A stretch of DNA of 64,000 nucleotides, from positions 121-64,120 of the forward strand of contig DATHSW010000395.1 in assembly GCA_035463855.1 (NCBI GenBank). Reading direction: 5' to 3'. A program made the position numbers and the translations under genes. The notes beneath the pieces are model-generated. The model had not been told where the DNA came from, did no database searches, and was given only the letters and a program-made list of their open reading frames with translations. Numbering within the stretch: the first letter of the stretch is position 1; each line of letters starts with the position of its first letter. Below, piece by piece: positions 3,827 to 57,101 of the stretch. This DNA comes from Candidatus Deferrimicrobiaceae bacterium. Lineage in GTDB: Bacteria; Methylomirabilota; Methylomirabilia; Rokubacteriales; CSP1-6.

Positions 3827-4536
3827 GCCGCCCGGGCCTCCCGGCGGTCCCGCACCGGCTCGTCGCCCACCAGCATCCCGTCACGGAAGCTCAGAACGCG
3901 CTGCGCGTATTGCGCGATGTCCGGCTCGTGCGTCACCAGCACGATGGTCAGCCCGGTCCGGTGAAGCCCCTGGACGACGGCCATGATCTCGCCGCTGGTC
4001 CGCGTGTCGAGGTTGCCGGTCGGCTCATCGGCCAGGAACAGGATCGGATCGTTGACGAGCGCGCGCGCGATGGCCACCCGCTGCTGCTCGCCTCCCGACA
4101 GCTGCGCGGGACGGTGCGCGGCCCGCCCCTCGAGCCCCACCGCCTCGAGCTTGCGCTGCGCCCGTTCGCGGCGCTCGCGGCCGGAGACGTCGGCGTAGAG
4201 CAGCGGCACCTCGACGTTGGCCCGGGCGGTGATCCGCGGCAGCAGGTTGAACTGCTGGAAGACGAACCCGATGCGTCGGTTACGGATCCCCGACAGCTCG
4301 TCGTCGTCCAGGCTCGACACGTCGCGGCCTTCCAGCAGGTAGCGGCCCGCCGTCGGCGTGTCGAGGCAGCCCAGGATCGTCATGAACGTGGACTTGCCGG
4401 ACCCGGACGGTCCCATGACCGCGACCATCTCGCCGGCCGCGATCGAGACCGAGACCCCGCGGAGGGCGTGGACGACGTGGTTCCCGAGCGGATACTCCTT
4501 GTGAAGCTCCTGGGCGTCGATCAGAGGGGTAGTCAT
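3823..4536 (-). CDS. ABC transporter ATP-binding protein (MacB/LolD-like)
   Basis: Walker [10 protein letters not shown], signature [15 protein letters not shown], Walker [14 protein letters not shown]. Start set at ATG 4536 (MTTPLIDAQ), because the track ORF's 79 extra N-terminal codons run through the promoter module. Confidence 0.85.
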
Positions 4537-4594
4537 CAGCGACCAATCCGTGCCCTTCATCCTGATCCCGGTGAACGGTGTAGCTCGCGAGGGC

Positions 4595-4610
4595 TGCATC
4601 ACCAGTGCCA
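4595..4610 (-). promoter_or_regulatory. sigma-54 type -24/-12 promoter for the ABC exporter-ppsA operon
   Basis: Minus strand reads TGGCAC-TGGTG-ATGCA, about 60 nt upstream of ATG 4536. Confidence 0.6.
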
Positions 4611-4697
4611 GGCGGCAGCTCCATCGATTCAAGAGCTTGCCATCGTTTCCCGGGCCACCGCGGGGGCGCTCCCGCCCCGGTGTGGCCGCGGCGCCCC
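4595..4697 (-). repeat. 103-bp conserved promoter module, copy 1 of 3 (sigma-54 promoter plus upstream conserved block)
   Basis: Aligns without gaps over the same 103-bp length with 57155-57257 (high identity) and 24163-24265 (lower identity). Shared blocks are tgca(t/a)..gtgcca, cgattca, and ccgcccc..tgtggccg...cgcccc. Confidence 0.7.
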
Positions 4698-4797
4698 GCT
4701 TCTCCTTGATGGCGTTGCCCTGGCGGAACCGGGCGTCGAACCGGGGGCGTCGGGCGCGCCCGTGTTCCGCCATCTCCGCGGCCGAGCGTACCGCCTG

Positions 4798-4995
4798 CTA
4801 TGCCTTCGCGAAGTGCTCCTTGAGGTGAGCGACGAGGCGCTGGAGCTGCTCCTCGTCCGTCTTGCGCATGTATTCCCACAGCTGCCCGCAGCTCGGGCAC
4901 TGCTTGGCGTCGTTGCGGAACGTGCCGTAACGATGCAGCCCCTTCGAGAGAATCGATGCGGTTTCCATCATGTCGTACGTCGCGTTGTCGAGCAT
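4798..4995 (-). CDS. small hypothetical protein (65 aa) with one CxxC pair
   Basis: MLDNATYDMMETASILSKGLHRYGTFRNDAKQCPSCGQLWEYMRKTDEEQLQRLVAHLKEHFAKA. A GGAG ribosome-binding site lies upstream of ATG 4995 and the gene has its own -24/-12 promoter. No family recognised. Confidence 0.5.
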   Translation of the reverse strand: MLDNATYDMMETASILSKGLHRYGTFRNDAKQCPSCGQLWEYMRKTDEEQLQRLVAHLKEHFAKA

Positions 4996-5061
4996 CCTGG
5001 AGTTCTCCTTTCGGTCCGGCCGGTTTCGAAGCCCGTCGACACCCCCGGTGGCCAGAGGTGC

Positions 5062-5077
5062 AGCAAGGTTGTTGCCA
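5062..5077 (-). promoter_or_regulatory. sigma-54 type -24/-12 promoter for the 65-aa gene
   Basis: Minus strand reads TGGCAA-CAACC-TTGCT, about 65 nt upstream of ATG 4995. Confidence 0.55.
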
Positions 5078-5284
5078 GTCGTGAGCGCGCCGCAAGTCGT
5101 GAAGTCTGATCGTTCGTGCTTCGCTGAACGCGGGCTGTCGCCGCGCTTCCTGTGGAGCCCCTGCCCCGAGTGGGGCAGGCGCGGGACACGATCGGCCGCC
5201 GTCGCGAGCGCGGCCGCGCCACATCTGGCAAGGCATGTTGGCCGCTTCGGCGCATTGTGCGTGCGCGGGCGCCCGGCCGCCGGC

Positions 5285-5300
5285 TGGTGCGGGACTTGCA
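5285..5300 (+). promoter_or_regulatory. candidate sigma-54 promoter for the AOR-PIMT gene (weaker -24 box)
   Basis: TGGTGC-GGGAC-TTGCA, with GG and GC at correct spacing, 27 nt upstream of ATG 5327. Confidence 0.4.
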
Positions 5301-5326
5301 CGAGAGGCGCCACGAGGGAGGAGTAC

Positions 5327-7903
5327 ATGGCCCGAGGGTTCATGGGCAAGATCCTCAACGTTGATCTCTCCACTCGCCGGATATGGAACGAGGCCCTGGA
5401 CGAATCCCTGTGCCGACGCTTTCTGGGAGGCTACGGGCTCGGCGCGAAGCTCCTCTATGACCGGATTCCACCCGGAGTCGATGGCCTGGGCCCCGACAAT
5501 CTCCTCGGCTTCTTCACCGGACCGCTGACGGGTACACCCGCGATCGAAGGCAATCGTTTCGTCGTGGTCGCGAAGTCCCCATTGACCGGCACCTGGGGTG
5601 ACGCCAATTGCGGTGGCACCTTTGGCCCCCATCTGAAGTTCGCCGGCTACGATGGCATCCTGTTCCGGGGCATCGCTGACACACCCGTCTACCTGTTCAT
5701 CGACGATGGCATGCCGCAGTTGCGCGAGGCCGAGTTCCTGTGGGGCAAGGACACCAACGAGACGGAGGACACGCTCAAGGAAGTCCTCGGCGCGAGCGCC
5801 GGTCGCGGTGGCCGGGCGATCGAGATCGCCTCGATCGGACCGGCGGGCGAAAAACAGAGCCTGATCGCGGCCATCATCAACGACAAGGGGCGGGCGGCCG
5901 GCCGCTCCGGGCTGGGCGCGGTGATGGGCAGCAAGCGCCTGAAGGCGATCGCGGTGTCGGGCCGTGCCACGGTGCCCCTCTTCGACGCCGACCGGGTCCG
6001 GGCCCTGCGGGAGCAGTACCTGAAGCGCCACGACGGGGCCTACGAGCTCTTCGTCAAGTACGGCACCATCGGGATCACCGCCGGTTCGATCCTGAGCGGG
6101 GATGCGCCGGTGAAGAACTGGGGCGGGGTTGGCTCCGTGGATTTCCCGCGCGGCGCGGTCGCGTTCGATCCGGACACGGTGATCGCATACCAGGACCGGA
6201 AATACGGCTGCTGGCAGTGCACGATGGCGTGCGGCGGACACATGTCGGTCAAGGAGCCGGGGCCGTACCGGGGCGTGGCGCATCACAAGATCGAGTACGA
6301 GACGGCCGGGGCCTGGGGAACGATGACGCTCACCGAAGACGTTCCCGCCCTGATCAAGATCAACGAGCTGTGCAATCGCTACGGGCTCGACACGATCGCC
6401 GCCGGCTGCACGGCCGCGTTCGCCATCGAATGCTACGAGGCGGGACTCATCACCAGCGCGGATACCGATGGTCTGGAGCTCACCTGGGGCAACGCGGCCG
6501 CCCTGGTCGCCCTCGCGGAGAAGATGGGCCGGCGCGAGGGATTCGGCGAGGTGCTGGCGGACGGCGTGAAGCGCGCCGCGGAGCGGATCGGGAGCGGATC
6601 AGAAGCCTACGCCATGCACGTGCAGGGCGCAGAGGTTCCCATGCACGACCCGAAGTACCAGCCGGGGCTGGCCACCGCGTACACGATGGACGCCACTCCC
6701 GGGCGGCATACCCAGGGCCACGAGGACATGCCCCCCCTCGTGAAGAGCTGGCCGGAGCACGACAAGTACCGCTGGACCGGCAAGGGAGAGCTCCACAAGC
6801 AGTGCGTGGAAATGGTCCACGTGGTCAACGCGGCGGGCGTCTGCCTGTTCGCGTACCTCGCGTATGACTGGCAGTTCATGCCCGATTTCTTGAGCGCGGT
6901 GACCGGCTGGCCGATCGATACCGCGGAGTGTCATCTCATCGGCGAGCGCATCGCCAATATCCGCCACGCGTTCAACGTGCGCGACGGCCTCAACCCGATC
7001 CGCTTCGAGCTGCCGGCGCGCGTGATCGGCGATCCGCCGCAGACCGCGGGCAACGTGCGCGGCATCACCGTGGACGTCAGCACGCAGGTCCGCGAGTACT
7101 GCCAGGCCATGGATTGGGACCCGGAGACCGCGCGCCCCAGTGAAGCGCGGCTCCACGCTCTGGAGCTCGACGAGGTCGCGCGAGACCTGTACGCACGGCC
7201 CGAGGAGCGTGAGATCGGGCGGCCGGGAACTCGAGACTTCAGGGACGAGCGCGAACGGATGGTCGACACTCAGATCGCAGCTCGCGGCATCCGGGATCCC
7301 TGGGTGCTCCACGCCATGCGGACGGTCCCCCGTGAGCGCTTCATCCCGGCCTCGCTCGAGGACTCCGCCTACGACGACGGGCCGTTGCCGATCGGAGAGG
7401 GCCAGACGATCTCCCAGCCCTATATCGTGGCGCTGATGACCGAGGCGGTTCAGCCCCGGCCGGGGGACCGTGGCCTCGAGATCGGAACCGGGTCGGGGTA
7501 TGCCGCGGCGGTGCTCGCCACGATCGTGTCGGACGTCTACACCGTCGAGCGCGTCGGCTCCCTGGCCGATGGCGCTCGACGACACCTGGCGGCGGTCGGC
7601 TATCGCAATGTTCACGTGCTCCACGGAGACGGGACCCTCGGCTGGCCGGAGCACGCTCCCTACGACGCCATCATCGTGACGGCCGGCGGTCCCTTCGTGC
7701 CCCCGGCGCTGCTCGAGCAGCTCGCCATCGGCGGGCGCCTGGTCATGCCGGTCGGGTCGGTGCTTCGCTTTCAGCGCCTGGTTCGCGTGACCCGTATGGC
7801 GGCGGACAGCTACGCCCGCGAAGAACTCGAGGAGGTGGCCTTCGTCCCCCTGATCGGCGAGCAGGGCTGGAGTCCCCCCCGCAAGCGGGCTGGGGAGAGA
7901 TGA
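5327..7903 (+). CDS. aldehyde:ferredoxin oxidoreductase (tungsto/molybdopterin AOR family) fused in frame to a C-terminal protein-L-isoaspartate O-methyltransferase domain
   Basis: Start MARGFMGKILNVDLS follows the ribosome-binding site GGGAGGAG. AOR motifs are GGYGLGAKLLYD and DANCGGTFGPHLKFAGYDG, and a typical AOR C-terminus (REYCQAMDWDPETARP) ends near residue 620. Residues about 645-858 are PIMT (GQTISQPYIVALM, LEIGTGSGYAAAVLA, PYDAIIVTAGG). No stop codon lies between the two parts. Confidence 0.8.
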   Translation: MARGFMGKILNVDLSTRRIWNEALDESLCRRFLGGYGLGAKLLYDRIPPGVDGLGPDNLLGFFTGPLTGTPAIEGNRFVVVAKSPLTGTWGDANCGGTFGPHLKFAGYDGILFRGIADTPVYLFIDDGMPQLREAEFLWGKDTNETEDTLKEVLGASAGRGGRAIEIASIGPAGEKQSLIAAIINDKGRAAGRSGLGAVMGSKRLKAIAVSGRATVPLFDADRVRALREQYLKRHDGAYELFVKYGTIGITAGSILSGDAPVKNWGGVGSVDFPRGAVAFDPDTVIAYQDRKYGCWQCTMACGGHMSVKEPGPYRGVAHHKIEYETAGAWGTMTLTEDVPALIKINELCNRYGLDTIAAGCTAAFAIECYEAGLITSADTDGLELTWGNAAALVALAEKMGRREGFGEVLADGVKRAAERIGSGSEAYAMHVQGAEVPMHDPKYQPGLATAYTMDATPGRHTQGHEDMPPLVKSWPEHDKYRWTGKGELHKQCVEMVHVVNAAGVCLFAYLAYDWQFMPDFLSAVTGWPIDTAECHLIGERIANIRHAFNVRDGLNPIRFELPARVIGDPPQTAGNVRGITVDVSTQVREYCQAMDWDPETARPSEARLHALELDEVARDLYARPEEREIGRPGTRDFRDERERMVDTQIAARGIRDPWVLHAMRTVPRERFIPASLEDSAYDDGPLPIGEGQTISQPYIVALMTEAVQPRPGDRGLEIGTGSGYAAAVLATIVSDVYTVERVGSLADGARRHLAAVGYRNVHVLHGDGTLGWPEHAPYDAIIVTAGGPFVPPALLEQLAIGGRLVMPVGSVLRFQRLVRVTRMAADSYAREELEEVAFVPLIGEQGWSPPRKRAGER

Positions 7904-7918
7904 GGATCCGCGCGAGCC

Positions 7919-9256
7919 GTGCCGTCTCCAACGTCCCGCTCGTCGCGCCTCGAACCGTACGGCCTGCACCGCCCGGAGCTGCGCGCCTGGGTGATGTACG
8001 ACTGGGCGAACTCGGCGTTCATGACCACGGTGGTCGCGGCCGTCTTCCCGATCTACTTCGCCCGGGTGGCCGCGGCCGCCTTGCCCCCCGCTACCGCGAC
8101 GTTCCGCTTCGGCCTTGCCACGACCATCGCTCTGGCCATCGTGGCGATCATGGCGCCCGTGTTCGGGGCGATCGCCGACTACGCGGCGTACAAGAAGCGG
8201 CTGCTCTTCGCCTTTCAGACGGTCGGCGTCGGCGCGACCGCGGGCATGTGCTTCATCGGCCAGGGCGACTGGCTTCTGGCCCTCGCGCTCTTCATGCTCG
8301 GCAACATCGGCGTGTACGGCGCCTTCACCTTCTACGACTCACTGCTTCCTCACATCGCATCGGCATCCGAGATGGACCGCGTCTCCACCGCGGGCTATGC
8401 CGTCGGCTATCTGGGCGGCGGCCTGTTGCTCGCCGTGAATCTGGCCTGGATCCAGATGCCCGAGCGCTTCGGTCTGCCCGACGCCCACGCGGGCGCGCGG
8501 TTGTCATTCCTGAGCGTCGCCCTCTGGTGGATGGTCTTCTCGCTACCCCTCTTCCTGCGCATCCGGGAGCCGTCCCGCGGGCTCGCCCTCGGCGAGCAGC
8601 CCGACCTCAATCCCGTTGCGGCCGGATTCAGCCGCGTCGGCAAGACGCTGGGAGAGCTGCGGACCTACCGGCAGGCGCTTCTGCTGCTGACCGCGTTCCT
8701 CATATACAACGACGGGATCAGCACGATCATCCGGATGGCCGCCATCTTCGGCACCGAGATCGGCATCGGGACGGGCCACCTCATCACCGCGCTCCTGCTC
8801 GCGCAGGTCGTGGGCATCCCCTGCTCGTTCCTCTTCGCCCGCGTGGCCGGCTGGATGGGCACGAAGGCGGCGATCTTCCTCACCCTGGGCTGTTACACCG
8901 GCATCAGCGTACTCGGCTACTTCATGAGCACGGCGGCCCACTTCTACGCGCTGGCGCTCCTCGTGGGGACCGTGCAGGGGGGCAGTCAAGCGCTCAGTCG
9001 GTCCCTGTTCGCCACCATGGTGCCGCGTGACCGGTCCTCCGAGTTCTTCGGCTTCTTCGGGGTCTCCGAGAAGTTCGCGGGCATCATCGGTCCTCTCGTC
9101 TTCACCGGCACGATCGCGCTCTCCGGCTCCAGCCGTGGCGCCGTGCTGTCGGTCATCGTCTTTTTCATCGCCGGCGCAATCGTGCTGAGCCGAGTCGACG
9201 TGGACGAGGGGCAGCGCGTCGCCCGCCGTGCGGACCTGCGACGCGCGCGAGAATGA
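7919..9256 (+). CDS. MFS transporter (UMF1/Atg22-like family)
   Basis: 445 aa with about 12 predicted TM helices. The N-terminal motif WVMYDWANSAF is typical of this MFS subfamily. Confidence 0.7.
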   Translation: MPSPTSRSSRLEPYGLHRPELRAWVMYDWANSAFMTTVVAAVFPIYFARVAAAALPPATATFRFGLATTIALAIVAIMAPVFGAIADYAAYKKRLLFAFQTVGVGATAGMCFIGQGDWLLALALFMLGNIGVYGAFTFYDSLLPHIASASEMDRVSTAGYAVGYLGGGLLLAVNLAWIQMPERFGLPDAHAGARLSFLSVALWWMVFSLPLFLRIREPSRGLALGEQPDLNPVAAGFSRVGKTLGELRTYRQALLLLTAFLIYNDGISTIIRMAAIFGTEIGIGTGHLITALLLAQVVGIPCSFLFARVAGWMGTKAAIFLTLGCYTGISVLGYFMSTAAHFYALALLVGTVQGGSQALSRSLFATMVPRDRSSEFFGFFGVSEKFAGIIGPLVFTGTIALSGSSRGAVLSVIVFFIAGAIVLSRVDVDEGQRVARRADLRRARE

Positions 9257-11708: not shown

Positions 11709-14700
11709 TCATGGGTCCCGCCTCGGTCGGCGCGGTGAGGCGGTGGCGCGGGCCACGGCCTTCCTCCCTTCCTCGAGCAACAGCATCGCGGGGGGGATCC
11801 ACAAGAGGAATCCCCACTCCGAGACGCCGAGGGCCGCGAGGCCGAAAGCCTCCGCCAGCGGTGGCGTGATAATGAGCAGCAGCAAGAGGCCGAGCTCGGC
11901 CGTGATTCCCACGAAGACGAGTGGGTTCCCGAAGAGGCCGGCGCGGAAGACCGACTCCCGATCGGTGCGGCAGGCGAATACGTTACCGACCTGGGCGGCG
12001 ACGATACCCGCGAGCGTCATCGTGGTCGCCCTCCGGTAGAGGGCACCGGTGGCCGCCATCGGCATCCCCGGTCGCCAGCCCGTCAGCCAGTAAGTCCAGA
12101 AGAAGGCAGCCAGAGCGAAGACGGCTTCGGCGGCCCCGAGGAAACCGTACGCATGCAGCAGGCGTCGGGCCCCGAGCAAGCGCTCGCTGCGGCCACGCGG
12201 CGGCTGGTCCATGACGCCCGGCTCGGGCGGCTCGGCCCCGAGCGCCAGCGCGGGCAGCAGGTCGGTACCGAGATCCACGGCCAGGATCTGCATGACCGTG
12301 AGCGGCAGCGGGATCCCGAGCAGCACGAACGCCAGGTAGGGCACCAGCTCGGGCACGTTGGAGGCGAAGATGTAGGTGACGAACTTGCCCATGTTGGCGT
12401 AGATGGCCCTCCCCTGCCGGACCGCCGAGACGATCGAGGCGAAGTTGTCGTCGGTGATCACCACGACGGCCGCCTCCTTCGCCACCTCGCTGCCCCGCCC
12501 TCCCATCGCCACCCCGACGGCGGCGGCCTTGAGAGCCGGGGCGTCGTTCACCCCGTCACCGGTGACGGCCACGACGTGGCCAGCCGCGGCCAGAGCCGAC
12601 ACGAGGGCGAGCTTGTGAGCGGGCGACGTCCTCGCGAAGAGCACGGCGGGCTCGGCGAGCAGTCGCTCCAACAGCTCGGGCGTCAGCCGTTCCAGCTCCT
12701 CGCCCGTGACGACTTTCTCGACCGGGAGGCCGACCTGGCGCGCAATGGCCTGCGCGGTGAGACCGTAGTCTCCCGTCACCATGATCACCCGGATACCGGC
12801 CCGGTGACACATGGCCACCGCCTCGGCAACCTCGGGACGGGGAGGATCCCAGAGCGCCACCATTCCCAGGAAGGTCAGCTGCTGCTCGACGCGGGAGGCT
12901 CCGCCGTCCAGCAGCTCATCGGCAATCGGGCGAGTGGCAACGGCCAGCATCCGAAGGCCTTCCGCGGCGAGACGGTCATGCTCCTGCTCGACGGCGCGGC
13001 GGATGGCGTCGGTGAGCAGTTCGGTGCGCCCGCTCCATCGGATCGTCTCGCAGAGAGCGAGCGTCTCCCGGGGCGCACCCTTGACGAAGGCCACCGGGCC
13101 GTCGGCGGTCGCGCGGATCAGGGTCATCCGCTTCCGGAACGAGTCGAAGGGGTGCGGGGCCAACAATGGGTGCGCCGTCCTGACCTTCGTGGGGTCCACG
13201 CCGGCGCGGGCGGCCGCCACCATCATGGCCACTTCGGTGGGATCGCCGCGCTCGGCGCTCGCCTGGGAGGCCAGCGCGGCGGCCTCGAAGAGCTCCTGCA
13301 CGCCGTCGGCGCCGCCCGTACCGGGGTCTGCGAGCGCACGCGTCCGCCCCGCCGCCCAGGCGAAGCGGGCCTCCATGCGTCCCTGGGTCAGAGTGCCGGT
13401 CTTGTCGGTGCAGATCACGGTGGTGGCGCCCAGCGTTTCGACCGCGGATAGCCGCTTGACGATGCAGGCGCGCCGGGCCATGCCCTGAACGCCGAGCGCA
13501 AGGGCGAGGGTCAGCGTCGGCAGCAGGCCCTCGGGCACGTTGGCGACGATCACGCCGAGGGCGAACACCAATCCGTCGCCGACGGAAAGGAGACCGAGCG
13601 CCGCACCCAACGCGAAGAAGGCCGCCCCAAAAGAGACCGCCAGCACGGTCACGACCCTCGTTACCCACGCCATCTCGCGCTGTAGCGGGCTCGGCGCCTC
13701 CGCCACGGCCTGCGTCAGGTGCGCAATGGCGCCGATCTCCGTCTGCATGCCCGTCGCGCGAGCCACCATGGTCCCGGTGCCGGCCACGACACCCGTGCCC
13801 GCGAAGACGAGCTCCTGGCACTCCAGGAAGGGGATCCGCGAGCGCGACTCGCCGGCGGCGGCGAGCTTGAACACCGGATGGGCCTCACCGGTGAGGGCAC
13901 TCTGGTCCACGCGCAGACCGGCGGCCGAGAGGAGCTGACCGTCGGCCGGAATCTGATCGCCTTCCTCGAGCCGGACGACATCTCCGGGGACGAGCCCCGT
14001 CACGATCAGGCGCTCCTCGCGACCGCCGCGCAACACCGTGATCTGCTGGGGCAGCATCGCTTGCAGCGCCTCCACCGCCCGCTCGGCCCGGTACTCCTGA
14101 AGGAAGCTGAACACACCGTTGACGACGATGACGCCGAAGATGGCCCAGCCGAGCTGCGGCATTCCGGCGAGGAACGCGCAGGCCCCTCCGATCCAGAGCA
14201 GCACCGCGAAGAAGCTCCAGAACTGCTCGAGGAAGCGGGCGACGAGCGGACGCCGCCGGATGCGCTCGAGCCGATTGGACCCGCAGGCGTGGAGGCGAAG
14301 CTCAACTTCGTCCGCAGCGAGCCCGTCGGGCCCGGACCCGAGGAGCGCCAGCACGTCGGCGGGCGCCAGCGCCGCCTCGCCGGCATGCTCTTCCGCCAGG
14401 GCCAGCACCCGCACGAGGCTCTCGCGGGTCGTCGCGGACACGGCGGCCTCCCGCACGGCCGCTTCGGCCAGGCAGGCGCAGAGCCGGGACACCAGCCGCA
14501 GGGCGCGCCCGCTCTCGGCAACGGGCGAGGTCAGCACGAGCGCGATCTCGGCGGAAGGGAGATCGGCCGCGAGCCGCGGCGCATGCGGCAGGCGCACCCA
14601 GCGCAGGCCCATGCCGCCGGAGGGTCGGGTGAGCGCGTGGGCCAGCACGACGCCGGGCGCGATCGTCAAGAGTCCAATCGGCCCTTCGAGATCGAGCCGC

Positions 14701-14809: not shown

Positions 14810-16504
14810 TCAGCTTCGCCCGAGCAGGGCTCTCAGCTCGCGGCCGCGCCTGGGCCGACCCAGCTTCCGCAGGGCGTGCGCCTCGATCTGACGGATCCGC
14901 TCTCGGGACAAGGACAGGCGCGTCGCGATCTCCTGGAGCGTGTGCTCGTGATCGGTCCCGATTCCAAACCGAAGCCGCAGGATCTCGCGCTCCTTGCCCG
15001 ACAGCGCCTTCAGCGCCTGCCGCACGCGGGTCACGGTCTCCTCGCTCAGGACGGCGACATCCGGGCTGGCAATCTCCTTGTCCTCGAGCAGATCGCCCAG
15101 CTGCGACTCCTCCTCACCGATCGGAGCCTGCAAGGATAGCGTCCGACCGGGAGCTTCCAGGAGCAGGCGAACCTGGCGGGCGGGCACCCGCATCATCACG
15201 GCCAGCTCCTCCGGAGTGGCTTCGCGTCCAAGCTTCGCCTCCAGGCTCCGCCTCACGCTCGATAGCCGGTACAGCTTCTCCGCCACATGGACCGGCACGC
15301 GGATCATGCGGGCGCGGTCGGCGATGCCCCGGGTCACGGACTGGCGGATCCACCACGTCGCATACGTCGAGAACCGGAACCCGCGGCGATACTGGAAGCG
15401 ATCCACCGCCTTGATCAGGCCGAGGTTGCCTTCCTGGATCAGATCGAGCAGGGAGATTCCGCTTCCACGATATCGCTTCGCCACCGAGACGACGAGTCGA
15501 AGATTCGCCTCGATCAGCTCCCGCTTGGCCTCGCGGACCAGGCGGTCCTGCTCCTGGATCCCGGACACGATCTCCCGGAACCGGTCGCGTCGGAGCCCGA
15601 CCTGCTTCTCCAGCTCTCGGAGGGCTCTGGTGCGTTCGCGGCCCGGCGAGCGGCCTTCCAGCTCCCGGATGCGCCCGCCCAGGCCCCCGAGCGTCGACGC
15701 CAGATCCTCGAGCACGACGGGCTTGATCGGAAGCCCCGCCACGATCTGCTGCACGCGCTCCCGATCGCGGGCGATCTGCCGTTCGACCAGCGCGCGCGCC
15801 GCGGCGGATCGCCTCCGTCCCCCGGGGGCGCGCTCCAGTCTGCCGATCGCCTGCTCGATGCGCTTGACCCGGGCAAACGCGGCCAGGACGCTCCGCACCC
15901 TCGCCGGCGTCGGCTCACGCGCTTCCGGCACGAGGATGAGGCCCTCGGGCGGGGTCTTGCCCGTCCGCACATCCTCGGCCCGGCCGAGCAGGGTCTGAAC
16001 GCCGAGCGGAACGGCGGCAAGCGCCCGGCGCAACTCGGTCTGACCCGCTTCGATGCGCTGGCCGATCTGCACTTCCTGGGCGGCGGTCAGCAACTTGGCC
16101 TTGCCGATCTCCGTGAGGTACCTGGTCGTCGGGTCCTCGGCCGCCGGCGCCGCCTCTTCGATCTCCTCTTCTTCTTCCGCTCCCTCTACCTCGAGCTCCT
16201 CTTCCGCTCTCTCTGCATCGAGCGTCCCGAGCACTCCGGCCGATTCGAGGACCAGCTCCGTCGCGGGCTTGATCGGCCGAGCCTCGGCCCGCTCCAGGGC
16301 GGCCCCGGGATTGCCGGTGACTCGACCGATCCGGCGGCGCCGGGGGCCCGGAGCCGGCTGGAGGGGAAGCCGTAGCTGCGAGACCGGCAGCACTCCCCAG
16401 CGCACCGCCCGCTCCCGCCACTCGCGGTCAGACTCCGAGAAGCGGCCCGCGCGCGGGATCCCCGATCGGCCCCGGCTGGATCGCGGCACGTGTGCGCTCC
16501 TCAC
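14810..16504 (-). CDS. RNA polymerase sigma-70 family factor, RpoD-like (paralog 1); start uncertain
   Basis: Region 1.2 [17 protein letters not shown], region 2 [35 protein letters not shown], region 4.2 [20 protein letters not shown], and an acidic spacer. The proposed GTG at 16504 overlaps the DUF2267 stop as GTGA. Confidence 0.8.
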
Positions 16505-16902
16505 GCCTCGGCTTGCGCTTCGACCCACACTTCCTTGAGACTCTTCGGCAGCTGCGCGAGAACGTCCCCCGCCTCGCCCGGCGACAGCTGTTCCTTCAGC
16601 GCCGCGAAGACCGCGAGCGTCATCCACCGCGCTTCGCGAGCCGACGCCAGCCCGGTCTCACGGCGCACTCGCTCGCGGAAGTCCTCCCACTTCAGCTTGA
16701 GCGGTCTCCGCTCGGGCGCCTCGCCCTCTTCCCACACGGTCTTCAACTCGAGCGGAAGCTGGGCGACGACCTGATCGGCTTCGATCGGGGTGAGCCGATC
16801 TCGCAACGCGTGAAACACCGCCGCGGTCGCGCGTCGTGCCGCCGCCGGATCTCCCTGGTGGCTCGTGTCCATAACGGTCCGGTAGAAAGACTGTGCCGTC
16901 AT
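16501..16902 (-). CDS. DUF2267-like protein
   Basis: [12 protein letters not shown]... with two repeats of the motif A..VF.AL...L...E...V.AQLP..LK.VW. The ribosome-binding site GGAGGAGGAGG precedes ATG 16902. Confidence 0.65.
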
Positions 16903-17459: not shown

Positions 17460-18179
17460 GTGGGGCACATGAACGAGAACCGGGCACGGGGCTGGGCCGT
17501 ACCGCCACCGAAAGAATCAACGAAGAGCTCCGGGGATTTCGCGCGCGAGCGGGCCGCCAAAGTCCGCCGGCTCATCAGGCAGGGCTACGTCCAATCCGCC
17601 CGAATCAGACAGGCCTTGTTGAAGGTGCCGCGAGAGGACTTTATTCCTCGCCAGTACCGGGACTACGCCTACCTCGAGGTTCCGCTGCCCCTGCCGGGCA
17701 CGCAGGCGACGATCTCGTGTCCGCACAGCTACCCCCTATTCTACGAGCCGCTCGGTCTGGACCAAGGCCATCGGTTCCTCGAGATCGGCACCGGCTCAGG
17801 ATACGGAAGTGCCGTCGCGCGAGAGATCGTCGGTGCCGGGGGGCTGGTTGTCTCGGTTGAAATCGACCCGTTGACCTTTGCCTTCGCCAAGGCCAATCTC
17901 GAGGCCGCTGCCTATCGAGATATCGTTCTTGTGCGCGGCGACGGCGGCCTCGGCTATCCGGAGCTCAGTCCGTACGACCGGATCGCGGTGACCGCGGCCT
18001 GCTCGACGATCCCTCCCCCTCTGATCGAGCAGCTCGCGATCGGGGGGAGGCTCGTCGCGCCGATCATAGAAGAGGGAGCCCAGAACCTCCGCCTCCTCGA
18101 GAAGACCGCGGAGGGGATCAGGACGCGAGTCATCGGCGAGGTCCTGTATGTATCTCTCAGGGGCGCCTACGCCGCGTGA
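17460..18179 (+). CDS. divergent protein-L-isoaspartate O-methyltransferase-like methyltransferase
   Basis: LKVPREDFIP, SAM motif FLEIGTGSGYGSAVAREIVG, PYDRIAVTAA, EQLAIGGRLVAPI. The substrate-loop motif is altered (ATISCPHSYPLFYE instead of GQTIS-P). Confidence 0.75.
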   Translation: MGHMNENRARGWAVPPPKESTKSSGDFARERAAKVRRLIRQGYVQSARIRQALLKVPREDFIPRQYRDYAYLEVPLPLPGTQATISCPHSYPLFYEPLGLDQGHRFLEIGTGSGYGSAVAREIVGAGGLVVSVEIDPLTFAFAKANLEAAAYRDIVLVRGDGGLGYPELSPYDRIAVTAACSTIPPPLIEQLAIGGRLVAPIIEEGAQNLRLLEKTAEGIRTRVIGEVLYVSLRGAYAA

Positions 18180-18271: not shown

Positions 18272-19684
<1,413 letters not shown>

Positions 19685-19769: not shown

Positions 19770-19947
19770 GCTCGCCTTCGCGGCCCGGGCGACGGGAAAC
19801 CGCTTCGCGGCCACGTTCACTTGTCGGTGCTCATGCGAGTCCATTCCGCGGCGATGGGGCGCTCGCGCCCCAGATGGGACATGAGTGCCAGCCACGGGCC
19901 CCGCGCTTCACTGCGGGCCTCGTCGAGTTACCGATGGCTTGGCGCTG

Positions 19948-19963
19948 AGGCACGGAGCTTGCT
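19948..19963 (+). promoter_or_regulatory. candidate sigma-54 promoter for sigma factor paralog 2
   Basis: AGGCAC-GGAGC-TTGCT. The GC of the -12 box lies only 16 nt before ATG 19978, which implies a near-leaderless mRNA. Confidence 0.45.
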
Positions 19964-19977
19964 GGCCGAGTCGTTCG

Positions 19978-21312
19978 ATGGGACCATCGAGGCTCGCCGA
20001 ATCTGATTCGCCGGAGCGGCAGAAGCCGGTATGGGAGGGCACGCGGTCAGCCCGGTCGGCCGGGGAGGACTTGGTCCGGCTGTATTTCCGGGAGATGAGC
20101 CAGGTTCCCCTCCTGAACCCGGCCGAGGAGATCGACCTCTGCCGGCGAATGGAGGAGGGACAGATCGCGCTTCGGCGTGCCTTGGCACGGGCCCCGCTGG
20201 CGCTGTCGATGCTCCTGGCGGTGGCCGGCCAGGTCCAGAGACACGAGCTTCCGCCGTCCGAGCTGATCGTCCCCGCGGACGGCAGCGAGGTCGACCCGGG
20301 GGTCCTCCGGGCCGCCTTCTCGCGAATCCGTCGCATCCGCAGGCTTCAGCGGGACCTCGACGCGCGCGGGGGCGCCTCCCGTGACGGCCGCCGCGCGGCC
20401 TCGAGCCGGCAGGCCTGCCGGCTACGTCTCGAGCGGGCCATGACCAGCCTGCCGGTCGCCCCCGCTCTCGTAGACAAGCTCGTCGCAGAGCTCCGCCACC
20501 AGGCGGCCGGTGTTTCCCCAGGCCTCATCGGCCTGTCGCAAGAAGCGCTTCGGAACCTCCTCGCCGAGCTGGCGGAACAGGAGCGCATCGTCTGCCGGTG
20601 CAAACGCGAGTTGACCGAAGCCAATCTCAGGCTGGTGGTCTCGATTGCCAAGCGGTATGCGCGCTTGGGCCTTCCCCTTTCCGACCTCATCCAGGAGGGC
20701 AACCTCGGACTGATCAAGGCGGTCGACCGCTTCCAGTACCGGCGCGGCTTCAAGTTCTCGACCTATGCGACCTGGTGGATCCGGCAGGCCATCACACGGA
20801 GCCTCGCCGATTCCGGTCGAACCATCCGGCTACCGCCGCCCATCGTCGAGGCGATGCAGCGCCTGCGACGGGTCCACGCAACGCTCACGGCAGAGCTGGG
20901 TCGGGAGCCCGCGGAGGCCGAGCTGGCCGGCCGGAGCGGCTTGTCGGATTCGAAGGTCCGACTCATCCTCGATTCCGTCCAGCGGCCCTGCTCCCTCGAG
21001 ACGCCGGTCGGCGAAGATGCGCAGCTGGGAGACTTCCTGACGGATGCCGAGGCGCCGAGGCCCGACGAGGCCGCTCTCGAGAAGGATCTCACCGCCCAGA
21101 TCGAGCGGAGCCTCGCGAGGCTCTCGGACCGGGAGCGCATGCTGCTGCAACTCCGCTTCGGGCTCGCCGGCGGCAGCGAGCACACGCTGGAAGAGATCGG
21201 CGCGCACTTCCTGGTCACCCGGGAGCGAATCCGGCAGATCGAGGCCAAGGCGCTCCGAAAGCTTCGTCACCCGGTCCGCAGCCAGGCGCTCCGGGCCTTT
21301 GCCAGGGGCTGA
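19978..21312 (+). CDS. RNA polymerase sigma-70 family factor, RpoD/RpoS-like (paralog 2)
   Basis: Region 1.2 [16 protein letters not shown], region 2 [35 protein letters not shown], region 4.2 [20 protein letters not shown]. Start at the first in-frame ATG after the promoter. Confidence 0.8.
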
Positions 21313-22963: not shown

Positions 22964-23632
22964 TTATCCGGTAGAAGAAGCTTCGCCGCCCTCGGTCCAG
23001 CCCTCGGCCCCGATCAGGGGGACGAACGCTACCTCTTCGAGATCCTCGTACTCGTACTCGTGCACATCGGTTCGGGTCACGCGGACTAGGCGCTGGTGGC
23101 GGGCGACCGGGCCCACCGGCATGACCAGCCGGCCGCCCACCGCGAGCTGGTTGAGCAGCGCCTTGGGCACTCGCGGGCCCCCCGCCGTCACCAGGATCGC
23201 GTCGTACGGCGCGTGCTCCGCCCAGCCCAGGCTGCCGTCGCCCTCGAGAACGTGGACGGTGGCGTAGCCGAGCCTGGCCAGACGGTCGCGGGCCTCGTCG
23301 GCCAGGGCCCCCACCCGCTCGACGGTGTACACCTCGGCCGCGATCCGCGACAGGACCGCCGCGCCGTAGCCCGAGCCGGTCCCGATCTCGAGGGCCCGGG
23401 CGCCCGCCTTGAGCCCGGCGGCGGCGGTCATGATGGCCACGATGTACGGCTGCGAGATGGTCTGGCCATGCCCGATCGGCAGCGGACCGTCGTCGCAGGC
23501 GAACTTCGCCAGGGACACCGGGACGAAGCGCTCCCGCGGGACGTTCCGCATCGCGTCCAGCACGAGCGGATCGGTGATGCCCCGCGCCTCGATCTGGGTG
23601 GCGACCATGCGCTCTCGGTCTACGTTCGGCAT
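22964..23632 (-). CDS. pcm: protein-L-isoaspartate O-methyltransferase
   Basis: 222 aa with GQTISQPYIVAIM, LEIGTGSGYGAAVLS, PYDAILVTAGG. Close paralog of 55969-56625. Confidence 0.9.
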   Translation of the reverse strand: MPNVDRERMVATQIEARGITDPLVLDAMRNVPRERFVPVSLAKFACDDGPLPIGHGQTISQPYIVAIMTAAAGLKAGARALEIGTGSGYGAAVLSRIAAEVYTVERVGALADEARDRLARLGYATVHVLEGDGSLGWAEHAPYDAILVTAGGPRVPKALLNQLAVGGRLVMPVGPVARHQRLVRVTRTDVHEYEYEDLEEVAFVPLIGAEGWTEGGEASSTG

Positions 23633-23668
23633 CGGAGCACCACCTCTCGCGCCCCCGGCGGATCCCGG

Positions 23669-24109
23669 CTACTCGCCCTTGATCGGGATCGTCGTGCCCT
23701 TCGCCGCCGGCGTCTTGGGCAGGGTCACCGTCAGCAGGCCGTTCTTGAACGTCGCCGAGACCTTGCTGCCATCCACCGCCACCGGCAGCCGCACCCCGCG
23801 CGTGAAGGCCCCGTAGGACCGCTCGACCCGGTGATACCGCTCGTCCTTCTCTTCCTTTTCCTGCTTCTTCTCGCCGGTGATCGTGAGCAGGTTGTCCTGC
23901 AGCGAGATCCGGATGTCCTTCTGGTCCATCCCCGGCACTTCGAGCGCCACGACCAGGCTGTCCTTCGTCTCCGAGATGTCCATGCTCGGGGACCAGTCAC
24001 CAAGCGCCGGGAAGTCGTCCCACTTGGTGGCGAGGAGCCGGTCGAACAGCCGGTCCATGTCCTGCTTCAGGTTCCCGAACCCCGTCCACGGCATCAGGCC
24101 ACTCGTCAT
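23669..24109 (-). CDS. Hsp20/alpha-crystallin small heat-shock protein
   Basis: 146 aa with an alpha-crystallin domain (SMDISETKDSLVVALEVPGMDQKDI ... GLLTVTLPK). Close paralog of 56658-57101. Confidence 0.9.
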   Translation of the reverse strand: MTSGLMPWTGFGNLKQDMDRLFDRLLATKWDDFPALGDWSPSMDISETKDSLVVALEVPGMDQKDIRISLQDNLLTITGEKKQEKEEKDERYHRVERSYGAFTRGVRLPVAVDGSKVSATFKNGLLTVTLPKTPAAKGTTIPIKGE

Positions 24110-55525: not shown

Positions 55526-55972
55526 TCACCGGCAGACCAGGACCGGGATCTTGCTGTGACTGAGCACCTTGTAGGTCTCGCTGCCGAGCACGAACCCGGA
55601 TATCCCCTTGCGCCCGTGCGAGGCCATGAAGATGAGATCGCAGCCCTTCTGGGTTGCGGTGTCGATGATGGCCTCGTACACATGATCCCGTGTCACGTGC
55701 ATCGTCTCGCAGGGGACGCCGGCGAGCCCCGCCTCGACCCTCGCCACCGCGAGATACTTCTCGGCCCGTGCCTCGGAATCCTTCGCGTACTGCTCCGGCG
55801 ATGGGGTGTAGCTCACCATGATCGGATCGACCTCGAAGACGTGGAAAGACGGCGAGACCGCGAGCGCGGTCACCTTGGCGCCGATCGCCCTGGCGAACGT
55901 GACCGCCTGCCGGATCGCCATCTCGGAGAGTGCGGAGCCATCCGTGGGGACCAGAATGTGCTTGTACATCAT
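55526..55972 (-). CDS. universal stress protein (UspA family)
   Basis: M(M)YKHILVPTDGSALSE ... ASHGRKGISGFVLGSETYKV. The start overlaps the pcm stop. Confidence 0.85.
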   Translation of the reverse strand: MMYKHILVPTDGSALSEMAIRQAVTFARAIGAKVTALAVSPSFHVFEVDPIMVSYTPSPEQYAKDSEARAEKYLAVARVEAGLAGVPCETMHVTRDHVYEAIIDTATQKGCDLIFMASHGRKGISGFVLGSETYKVLSHSKIPVLVCR

Positions 55973-56625
55973 CCCTGTCCTTCCTCGGTCCACCCCTCGG
56001 CCCCGATCAGGGGGACGAACGCCACCTCTTCGAGATCCTCGTACTCGTACTCGTGCACGTCGGCCCGGGTCACCCGCCCCAGCCGCTGGTGGCGCCCGAC
56101 CGGGCCCACCGGCATGACCAGCCGGCCCCCCAGCGCGAGCTGGCTCAGCAGCGCCTTCGGCACTCGCGGGCCCCCCGCCGTCACCACGATCGCGTCGTAC
56201 GGTGCGTGCTCCGGCCACCCCAGCGTCCCGTCCCCCGCCAGCACGTGGACGTTGCCGTACCCCAGCTCGGCCAGCCGGGCGCGGGCCGTCTCGGCCAGCT
56301 CCCCGACCCGCTCGACCGTGTATACCTCGGCCGAGATCCGCGACGGGACGGCCGCCCCATACCCCGAGCCGGTCCCGATCTCGAGCGCCCGGGCCCCCGG
56401 TTTGAGCCGGGCGGCCGCCGTCATGACCGCCACGATGTACGGTGGCGAGATGGTCTGGCCATGTCCGATCGGCAGCGGGCCGTCGTCGTAGGCGAACCGC
56501 GCCAGCGCCGCCGGGACGAACCGCTCCCGCGGAACCTCCCGCATGGCCTCCAGCACGAGCGGATCGGTGATGCCCCGCGCCTCGATCTGCGCGACGACCA
56601 TGCGCTCTCGGTCGTCGTGCGGCAT
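55969..56625 (-). CDS. pcm: protein-L-isoaspartate O-methyltransferase (second copy)
   Basis: MPHDDRERMVVAQIEARGITDP, GQTISPPYIVAVM, LEIGTGSGYGAAV, PYDAIVVTAGG. Confidence 0.9.
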   Translation of the reverse strand: MPHDDRERMVVAQIEARGITDPLVLEAMREVPRERFVPAALARFAYDDGPLPIGHGQTISPPYIVAVMTAAARLKPGARALEIGTGSGYGAAVPSRISAEVYTVERVGELAETARARLAELGYGNVHVLAGDGTLGWPEHAPYDAIVVTAGGPRVPKALLSQLALGGRLVMPVGPVGRHQRLGRVTRADVHEYEYEDLEEVAFVPLIGAEGWTEEGQG

Positions 56626-56657
56626 CGGAGCATCACCCCCCACCCGGCGGGTTCCCC

Positions 56658-57101
56658 CTACTCGGCCTTGATCGGGATCGTCGTGCCCTTCGCCGCCGGC
56701 GTCTTGGGCAGCGTTACCGTCAGCAGGCCATTCTTGAACGTTGCGGCGACCTTGCTGCCATCCACCGCCACCGGGAGCCGCACGCTCCGGGTGAAGGCGC
56801 CGTACGACCGCTCCACCCGGTGATACCGCTCATCCTTCTCTTCCTTCTCCTGCCTCTTTTCTCCCTTGATCGTCAGCAGGCTCTCCTGCAGCGAGATCTG
56901 GATGTCCTTCTGGTCCATCCCCGGGACCTCGAGCTTCACGACCAGGCTGTCCTTCGTCTCCGAGATGTCCATGCTCGGAGACCACTCGCCCAGCGCGGCC
57001 GGGAACTCGTCCCACTTGAGCTCGGCGAGGCGATCGAACCAGCGATCGAGATCGCTCTTCATGCTTCCCAACCCCGTCCACGGCATCAGTCCACGCGCCA
57101 T
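56658..57101 (-). CDS. Hsp20/alpha-crystallin small heat-shock protein (second copy)
   Basis: 147 aa, highly similar to 23669-24109 at both protein and DNA level. Confidence 0.9.
   Translation of the reverse strand: MARGLMPWTGLGSMKSDLDRWFDRLAELKWDEFPAALGEWSPSMDISETKDSLVVKLEVPGMDQKDIQISLQESLLTIKGEKRQEKEEKDERYHRVERSYGAFTRSVRLPVAVDGSKVAATFKNGLLTVTLPKTPAAKGTTIPIKAE

Follow-up and report, generated by a model that had tools for sequence, protein, structure and literature searches.

Organization of the AOR-PIMT fusion gene

The 64,000-nt stretch of DNA analyzed here (the window; GC content 70.8%; all positions are given in its numbering) carries on its forward strand a gene in which the coding sequence of an aldehyde:ferredoxin oxidoreductase (AOR) continues in frame into that of a protein-L-isoaspartate O-methyltransferase (PIMT). 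Such an in-frame fusion had been proposed in an earlier note on this DNA, and it proves to be genuine: a single open reading frame (ORF) of 858 codons comprises a complete AOR (residues 1-622) and a complete PIMT (residues ~637-858). Pfam places AFOR_N at residues 7-212 (E 1e-76; 257 bits against a cutoff of 30), AFOR_C at residues 230-614 (E 6e-96; 322 against 27) and PCMT (PF01135) at residues 642-845 (E 1e-59; 202 against 20) in one frame, and because of these E-values and the preservation of the fusion in independent assemblies, chance is excluded. The features of the gene are listed below (SAM, S-adenosylmethionine).

5316..5323, + strand: Shine-Dalgarno (SD) sequence GGGAGGAG, whose GGAGG core ends 5 nt before ATG 5327
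5327..7903, + strand: AOR-PIMT fusion gene, 858 codons plus TGA, predicted product of 93.1 kDa
5327..7192, + strand: AOR module, residues 1-622, with AFOR_N at nt 5345-5962 and AFOR_C at nt 6014-7168
6209..6232, + strand: C295-x2-C298-x3-C302, three of the four [4Fe-4S] cysteine ligands, from the alignment to 1AOR
6842-6844, + strand: C506, the fourth [4Fe-4S] cysteine ligand, from the alignment to 1AOR
7193..7234, + strand: linker ARPEEREIGRPGTR, residues 623-636, with no counterpart in unfused AORs or stand-alone PIMTs
7235..7900, + strand: PIMT module, residues ~637-858, equivalent to a whole stand-alone pcm ORF, with Pfam PCMT at nt 7250-7861
7259..7261, + strand: ATG for M645, a conserved Met inside helix 1 of the PIMT (RERMV) and probably no start codon
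7406..7420, + strand: TISQP substrate-site motif, residues 694-698 (alignment A2)
7475..7501, + strand: LEIGTGSGY, SAM-binding motif I, residues 717-725 (alignment A2)

ORF analysis reveals an open frame that is uninterrupted throughout 4970..7903 (+). ATG 5327 is the supported start of translation: an SD lies upstream of it, with the GGAGG block kept at equal spacing before the AOR start in the orthologues (alignment A3), and the resulting N-terminus, MARGFMGKILNV, follows the pattern MARGxMGKILNV that is common to the fused orthologues and to unfused AORs of several phyla. The NCBI record P0127 (977 aa) begins at ATG 4970, not 5327. Its 119 additional residues (window 4970-5326, +) have no homologues, and with an SD preceding ATG 5327, the deposited annotation from ATG 4970 is probably over-extended. 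This upstream extension and two long antisense ORFs, 4280-6286 (-) and 6599-7969 (-), were rejected as high-GC artefacts, which have neither a domain match nor orthologue support. Rfam searches of the whole window at gathering thresholds, in addition to a permissive search of 4700-5400, give no match of any kind, and thus neither a molybdenum- or tungsten-cofactor riboswitch nor a SAM riboswitch upstream of the gene; no tRNAs are found in the window, and a scan of it for promoter and terminator consensus sequences is not informative.

The AOR module

A comparison with solved structures reveals that residues 4-608 match the AOR of P. furiosus (1AOR) with an E-value of 6e-101. The cysteines C295, C298, C302 and C506 align with C288, C291, C295 and C494 of 1AOR and are invariant or nearly so in a 15-sequence AOR alignment (A1), and E325 and H461, which correspond to the active-site residues E313 and H448 near the metal in 1AOR, are invariant in the alignment. 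The first pterin motif, NRYGLDT, is of the type N-x-x-G-L-D found in the solved bacterial AORs. The second, NAAGVCL (in VVNAAGVCLF), has Asn501 (nt 6827-6829) at the position where all five solved AORs carry Asp; this Asn is also present in the nearest unfused relatives and is therefore unrelated to the fusion. By every tested feature except the Asn in pterin motif 2, the AOR half appears to be a tungsten oxidoreductase of the AOR subfamily.

The module ends at the residues DLY, after which unfused AORs have one more residue and then a stop. The unfused relatives (at most 79% identical; 73-79% in A1) stop at ...ARDL(Y/H)x, precisely at the point (residue 622/623) where the fused protein continues.

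The linker and the PIMT module

The junction reads ARPEEREIGRPGTRDFRDERER, as given previously, and the length of the linker varies from 14 to 19 residues across the fused proteins. The PIMT domain that follows exceeds the equivalog cutoffs of NCBIfam (249 bits against 188 for PRK00312 and 217 against 159 for TIGR00080), and residues ~643-844 match bacterial and archaeal PIMT structures, the best two being 4L7V and 3LBF (E ~5e-51 to 8e-51). The close likeness to two stand-alone pcm genes of the window that the earlier note had described amounts to 72% identity with each.

In the alignment of the four window PIMTs with E. coli Pcm (A2), the T, I, S and P of the TISQP motif are invariant and the Q position varies; TISQP is present in every fused orthologue and in every orthologue that has lost its AOR (de-fused). 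LEIGTGSGY, VE (the acidic residue after strand 2), GDG and D-x-I-x-VTA are invariant in the same alignment, including E. coli Pcm, and the SAM-binding motifs are kept in all fused and de-fused orthologues. By every sequence test, the PIMT half appears to be a canonical Pcm.

A different identity, that of the PIMT homologues that act in pathways of ribosomally synthesized and post-translationally modified peptides (RiPPs), was considered and rejected. The fused domain shares the PCMT fold with these proteins (the FxLD-system methyltransferase family TIGR04364 and the methyltransferase family TIGR04188 of ATP-grasp peptide maturase systems) and gives partial matches to their hidden Markov models, but it scores 148 bits where the first family requires 320 and 111 bits where the second requires 380, far below both cutoffs. 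The neighbours are genes for an MFS transporter, a GNAT protein, a CBS protein and an ABC transporter, and no precursor-peptide, lanthipeptide or ATP-grasp genes are present among the annotated neighbours.

Conservation and distribution of the fusion

A search of 5.8 billion clustered proteins reveals the same three-domain architecture in P0001-P0007, P0050 and P0094, that is, in at least nine protein clusters, whose members number in the dozens and come from assemblies of JGI, ENA, Logan and NCBI. Identity of the fused orthologues to the window protein is 80-88%, and 100% in the cluster to which that protein belongs. The 29 sequences retrieved from these four data sources that span the junction all cross it without a stop codon, with at least 15 linker variants and with length differences of whole codons only.

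Ratios of nonsynonymous to synonymous substitution rates (dN/dS) were obtained by the Nei-Gojobori method from codon alignments of six fused orthologues (window, L001, L002, L088, L089 and L091; dS 0.4-0.8).

AOR part: dN/dS 0.11-0.20
PIMT part: dN/dS 0.15-0.24
19-codon linker: dN/dS 0.4-1.25

Both enzymes are therefore maintained by purifying selection. The linker is a nearly neutral tether, yet its frame is never broken. These observations bear on the possibility that the fusion is an artefact of a single contig, whether from an error in sequencing, the loss of a stop codon or chimeric assembly, which has no basis other than the a priori doubt in the earlier note about the AOR stop. The junction has been assembled independently many times by different pipelines, in sequences that differ by a dS of up to ~0.8 and carry many linker variants, which refutes a lost or mis-sequenced AOR stop and leaves this explanation a practically negligible probability.

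Several individual records merit mention. In P0094, from a contig of 3261 bp, the C-terminal half of the PIMT is frameshifted, through either a sequencing error or decay of the copy. Just downstream of the fused gene of L001, at 12746-12970 (-), lies a PCMT-like fragment (44% identity over 75 residues), which may be a pseudogene remnant of pcm. HUM15289.1, an nr entry in the P0001 cluster that is at least 90% identical to the window fusion, is named only pcm, so that its AOR half is missed. The label of this entry, 'Candidatus Nitrosotalea sp.' (a low-GC archaeon), was rejected as the probable result of a mis-binned contig, given a GC content of 70.8% and bacterial sigma-70, LonA, HU and L,D-transpeptidase genes.

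The nearest named homologues of both the AOR and the PIMT are from Rokubacteria/Methylomirabilota, followed by Gemmatimonadota and Latescibacterota. Among the matches listed, none of 80 genome loci with unfused AORs 42-73% identical to the fused one (from Gemmatimonadota, Rokuibacteriota, Latescibacterota, Chloroflexota, Planctomycetota, Desulfobacterota and other phyla) has a PCMT gene within 6 kb of the AOR gene, and none of 79 metagenomic loci with PIMTs 57-71% identical has an AOR gene within 3 kb. Downstream of the nearest unfused AORs (76-78% identical) lie pyruvate:ferredoxin oxidoreductase genes, an integrase fragment or GYD/BON genes, with no PCMT gene adjoining. Among the loci examined, a linkage between AOR and pcm is not general outside this lineage. 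An origin of the fusion by loss of the stop codon between long-standing neighbours was rejected, as no pcm adjoins the related unfused AORs in the loci examined. No other AOR-PCMT protein is present in the best 150 matches among 1.84 billion representatives, a library collapsed at 50% identity, by which the absence of independent fusions is only weakly shown. One candidate, P0273, proved to be a tandem PCMT-PCMT protein.

Remnants of the AOR in stand-alone PIMT genes

When the PIMT domain by itself is the query, the matches include proteins that consist of a PIMT only, are 76-90% identical to the fused domain and have pieces of the AOR as their N-termini. These scars consist of the first 3-18 codons of the AOR, of its last ~25 codons, or of both. 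In class I (P0315, P0316, L093, L094 and L097), MAR or MAG is followed by AOR residues ~599-622 and the linker. P0315 and P0316 start with MAREDPKTARPSE..LDEVARDLHAPRTEREMP..RDFREEREQMV, and the DNA of L093, AAGGAGGATGAA-ATGGCCGGAGAAGACCCGAAGACC, contains an AOR-type SD and ATGGCC(A/G)GAG, directly followed by the AOR tail. The junction of L094 is the same, with a 1-nt frameshift in the relic. Both loci align colinearly with the window, beginning at nt ~7117 and extending through the gene downstream of the fusion, which encodes an MFS transporter, at 83-85% nucleotide identity, and AOR residues 4-597 are entirely gone from them; L097 is a third class I locus.

In class II, P0326/L096 starts with MARDSVGHILNIDPSTRR, in which codons 1-18 of the AOR run in frame into the end of the linker; 41 of 55 nt in this relic are identical to the AOR start of L089. 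P0322/L095 is a gene of the same type with a 2-nt deletion inside the relic (A3), and no AOR is found near the class II loci. A tentative class III with a shorter scar (P0323, MTRGLMGK...) and a tentative, possible class IV (P0319-P0321, MTRG plus DFREERERMV, as in MTRG-DFREERERMV of P0319) are judged from protein sequence. The scar-bearing PIMTs fall among the fused domains in a neighbour-joining tree, which is rough and has no bootstrap support. Purifying selection still acts on the de-fused PIMTs (dN/dS 0.14-0.23), which have lost none of the motifs.

We read these scars as the traces of a fusion that would be ancestral to the subclade and from which the AOR would have been deleted later at least two times, with different breakpoints, in such a way that the ribosome-binding site and start codon of the AOR stayed in frame with the PIMT. 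As the deletions kept the AOR SD and ATG in frame, the PIMT would have had no translation signals of its own, which is evolutionary evidence for a true fusion polypeptide. The scars indicate that the PIMT is likely translated from the AOR start and is able to work without the AOR. That selection on the PIMT continues after the loss of the AOR argues against an obligatory mechanistic coupling, and any coupling between the halves would be loose because the AOR was repeatedly lost while the PIMT was retained.

The same evidence bears on a chemical coupling, in which the PIMT-like domain would methylate the carboxylic acids produced by the AOR, or the AOR would act on aldehydes or carbonyls of damaged proteins recognized by the PIMT. 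Both halves perform carboxyl chemistry, and fusions often mark consecutive steps of a pathway. Against this, the PIMT domain passes the canonical pcm equivalog cutoff, shares 72% identity with ordinary pcm genes linked to Hsp20 and retains TISQP, the motif for peptide binding; it appears to function without the AOR in the descendants, and AOR and pcm are unlinked in every other lineage examined. A chemical coupling is thus very unlikely.

Where translation of the PIMT domain starts

The ATG at 7259 is, as noted earlier, in frame at the start of the PIMT domain and encodes M645. The equivalent Met is internal in the stand-alone pcm genes of the window (MPNVDRERMV and MPHDDRERMV), each of which has its own SD and starts 8 codons upstream of the M645 equivalent. 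The fused domain is therefore a complete pcm ORF without its start, and M645 belongs to the interior of the first helix and is probably not a site of initiation. In the window, the stretch preceding this ATG, GGGACGAGCGCGAACGG, contains no well-spaced SD.

These results disfavour the alternative in the earlier note that pcm initiates internally. In its broader form, a separate PIMT would arise by initiation at or near ATG 7259 or by proteolysis of the linker, and the open frame of the junction would be incidental. In its favour, the PIMT domain has a conserved Met codon at its start, which in L089 and L091 is preceded at 10-12 nt by a GGAGG-like sequence, and the gene call of P0314 begins at that Met. 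However, apart from the internal position of this Met in stand-alone PIMTs, the window has GGGACGAG instead of a good SD, at a long spacing; the frame is kept through the linker in all 29 sequences despite near-neutral evolution; and the de-fused descendants keep the AOR SD and ATG in frame rather than using Met645. The GGAGG-like stretch before Met645 is a by-product of Glu and Arg codons. A separately made PIMT is rather improbable, and minor internal initiation at M645 is conceivable.

Other PIMT genes and genomic context

The window holds four PIMT genes in 64 kb, including the fused gene. The others, and the gene that follows the fusion, are as follows.

22964-23632, - strand: stand-alone pcm with 72% identity to the fused domain, immediately following an Hsp20 gene
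55969-56643, - strand: stand-alone pcm with 72% identity to the fused domain, immediately following an Hsp20 gene
17460-18179, + strand: divergent PCMT gene, 40% identical to the fused domain, adjoining an HtrA/DegP protease gene and not mentioned in the earlier note
7919..9256, + strand: UMF1/ATG22-like MFS transporter gene (Pfam ATG22, E 4e-62), 15 nt downstream of the fusion gene

The two Hsp20-pcm pairs, 22964-24109 (-) and 55969-57101 (-), share 86% nucleotide identity over 1123 nt, which indicates a fairly recent duplication. An Hsp20 gene is directly upstream of pcm in 5 of 80 metagenomic PIMT loci among the matches listed (L129, L138, L143, L145 and L152). The divergent PIMT gene has as neighbours 18272-19684 (-), 14810-16627 (-) and 19885-21312 (+), which are the HtrA/DegP-type protease gene and two sigma-70-family factor genes; this neighbourhood recalls the pcm-rpoS arrangement of E. 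coli.

The MFS gene is probably co-transcribed with the fusion gene. It also follows the AOR-deleted pcm in L093 (83% amino acid identity) and L094 (76%), and it does not follow the fused gene in L001, L002, L088, L089 or L091, so that only the window and the class I loci have a downstream MFS gene in common. There is no conserved operon: the flanks differ among L001, L002, L088, L089 and L091, often lying on the opposite strand.

In the window, the fusion and MFS genes are accompanied by genes for a PEP synthase/PPDK, a MacB-type ABC exporter, a GNAT protein, four CBS-pair proteins, a P-type ATPase, the two sigma-70-family factors, the PIMT with HtrA, an M28 peptidase, the two Hsp20-pcm pairs, NAD synthetase, PolX, two Usp proteins, malic enzyme, an L,D-transpeptidase, Lon, HU and an M50 protease. 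The surroundings of the orthologues include CBS, Usp, Hsp20, nitroreductase, ribonucleotide reductase, DUF2267, RtcB, endonuclease V and PolX genes. The neighbourhood looks like an island of stress, dormancy and proteostasis genes, and its recurrence suggests that the island is conserved in the lineage. In the set formed by the window, L002, L088, L089, L091 and L093, a ribosome hibernation factor is also among the stress-type genes. This context makes it plausible that the fusion originated by local rearrangement among stress genes and that it is regulated by stress.

Proposed function of the fusion protein

The explanation that we favour, with a probability of roughly 0.65 for the whole of it, is a true translational fusion of ~93 kDa with two loosely coupled halves, the benefit of which lies in co-expression. 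Translation from ATG 5327 would yield one 93-kDa protein, whose first 622 residues would fold as an aldehyde:ferredoxin oxidoreductase with a tungsten or molybdenum pyranopterin and a [4Fe-4S] cluster, followed by a short, flexible and fast-evolving linker and a SAM-dependent PIMT of ~220 residues. The fusion would have a single origin in a narrow lineage of GC-rich uncultured bacteria, where a lineage-specific pcm paralogue would have been joined behind an AOR gene in the stress island and would have lost its own start. The AOR module would oxidize reactive aldehydes to acids with a low-potential acceptor, pre-empting damage; characterized AORs are dimeric, and the module is probably dimeric as well. 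The PIMT would methylate L-isoaspartyl residues of aged proteins with SAM and so start their reversion to aspartyl residues, repairing damage.

The halves most likely act independently, and the benefit would be an obligatory 1:1 co-expression from one stress-controlled promoter and one ribosome-binding site, not substrate channelling. The PIMT would be the indispensable half, given at least two AOR deletions in which the AOR SD and ATG are kept. The fusion may plausibly join aldehyde detoxification to protein repair, as suggested earlier. From the sequences we infer the enzymatic activities, the identity of the metal, the independence of the halves, the regulation by stress and the selective reason for the fusion.

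Some points weigh against this explanation. The independence of the two activities is deduced from the neutral linker and the loss of the AOR. An AlphaFold2 prediction from the 15-sequence alignment A1 has a mean predicted local distance difference test score of 39 and a predicted template modelling score of 0.33, and is unusable for domain contacts. N501 stands in place of the Asp found in the second pterin motif of the five solved AORs, some orthologues carry the GGAGG-like GGGAGGAG 10-12 nt upstream of the conserved Met645, and the searches for independent AOR-PIMT fusions in other clades are limited by the length of the match lists and by clustering.

A repair in cis has also to be weighed, in which the tethered PIMT would keep its own long-lived AOR, an enzyme expensive in cofactors, or the dimer partner of that AOR, free of isoaspartyl damage during dormancy. 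The physical tether and the dormancy-like character of the gene island are consistent with such a role, and since three other PIMT genes are available for general repair, the fused fourth copy could specialize. However, sites prone to isoaspartyl formation are not enriched: the fused AORs have 0-2 Asn-Gly and 2-7 Asp-Gly, compared with 1 and 3-6 in the unfused AORs. The PIMT is, moreover, kept under purifying selection after deletion of the AOR, and the neutral linker gives no sign of a co-evolved interface. A repair in cis is accordingly judged unlikely. Taken more broadly, there is only a slim chance that the PIMT is a built-in maintenance module of an O2-sensitive tungsten enzyme or its dimer partner in dormancy, or that the two active sites cooperate on carboxyl or aldehyde groups of damaged proteins; if either were true, this would be the first enzyme with its own isoaspartyl-repair domain.

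The fusion provides a testable Rosetta-stone hint that aldehyde detoxification and isoaspartyl repair may belong to one stress or dormancy programme in these uncultured bacteria, which are abundant in soil and sediment. The PIMT genes with scars amount to deletion experiments made by nature, which order the events as fusion followed by repeated loss of the AOR and point to the dependence of the PIMT on the AOR translation start and to the PIMT as the half retained by selection; they provide a clear small case of gene fusion and then fission. Additionally, public records name the protein either 'AOR' or 'pcm', missing one half each time, and this annotation can be corrected. The practical impact is modest, with a possible handle on PIMT biology in organisms that have several pcm paralogues.

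Comparison with known systems

The earlier note knew of no described fusion of this kind, and full-text literature searches gave no paper that describes an AOR-PIMT fusion. A 2026 classification of 92 clades of tungsten oxidoreductases makes no mention of a methyltransferase or of an AOR fusion, and uses the word 'fused' once, for a ModBC transporter. The protein is a new domain architecture of two known enzymes that occurs in one narrow lineage and is evolutionarily unstable; nothing points to novel chemistry or to a system of a new kind.

The AOR half resembles the solved AORs (1AOR, the bacterial 9G7J and 9MQX, and AorB of A. aromaticum, 8C0Z) in its full-length AFOR_N and AFOR_C domains (E 6e-101 to 7e-89), in the four [4Fe-4S] cysteines and in the Glu/His pair near the metal. 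It differs from them in carrying a C-terminal PIMT and in having Asn501 in place of D489 of 1AOR, and no ferredoxin or AorA/C-type subunit genes are seen adjoining the fusion gene. Other AOR fusions among the best 150 matches, one with a C-terminal GNAT domain (P0289) and one with ThiF at the AOR N-terminus (P0218), reveal that an extra domain is tolerated at either end, whereas neither partner domain is a PCMT.

The PIMT half is similar to bacterial and archaeal Pcm (E. coli 3LBF, V. cholerae 4L7V and P. furiosus 1JG1) in its equivalog scores and in all SAM and substrate motifs, and E. coli Pcm is 48% identical to the fused domain. In contrast to these proteins, the fused PIMT lacks its own start codon and ribosome-binding site and forms the C-terminal domain of an oxidoreductase.

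For the fusion as a whole, the closest parallel is found in the MsrA-MsrB fusions and in the Trx-MsrA-MsrB protein PilB of Neisseria, the components of which exist as separate forms in other organisms. As in these proteins, two damage-control activities would reside on one polypeptide with obligatory co-expression. However, MsrA and MsrB act on two epimers of one lesion, whereas the substrates of the AOR and the PIMT, a small aldehyde and protein isoaspartyl residues, are unrelated, and the AOR-PIMT architecture is limited to one narrow lineage.

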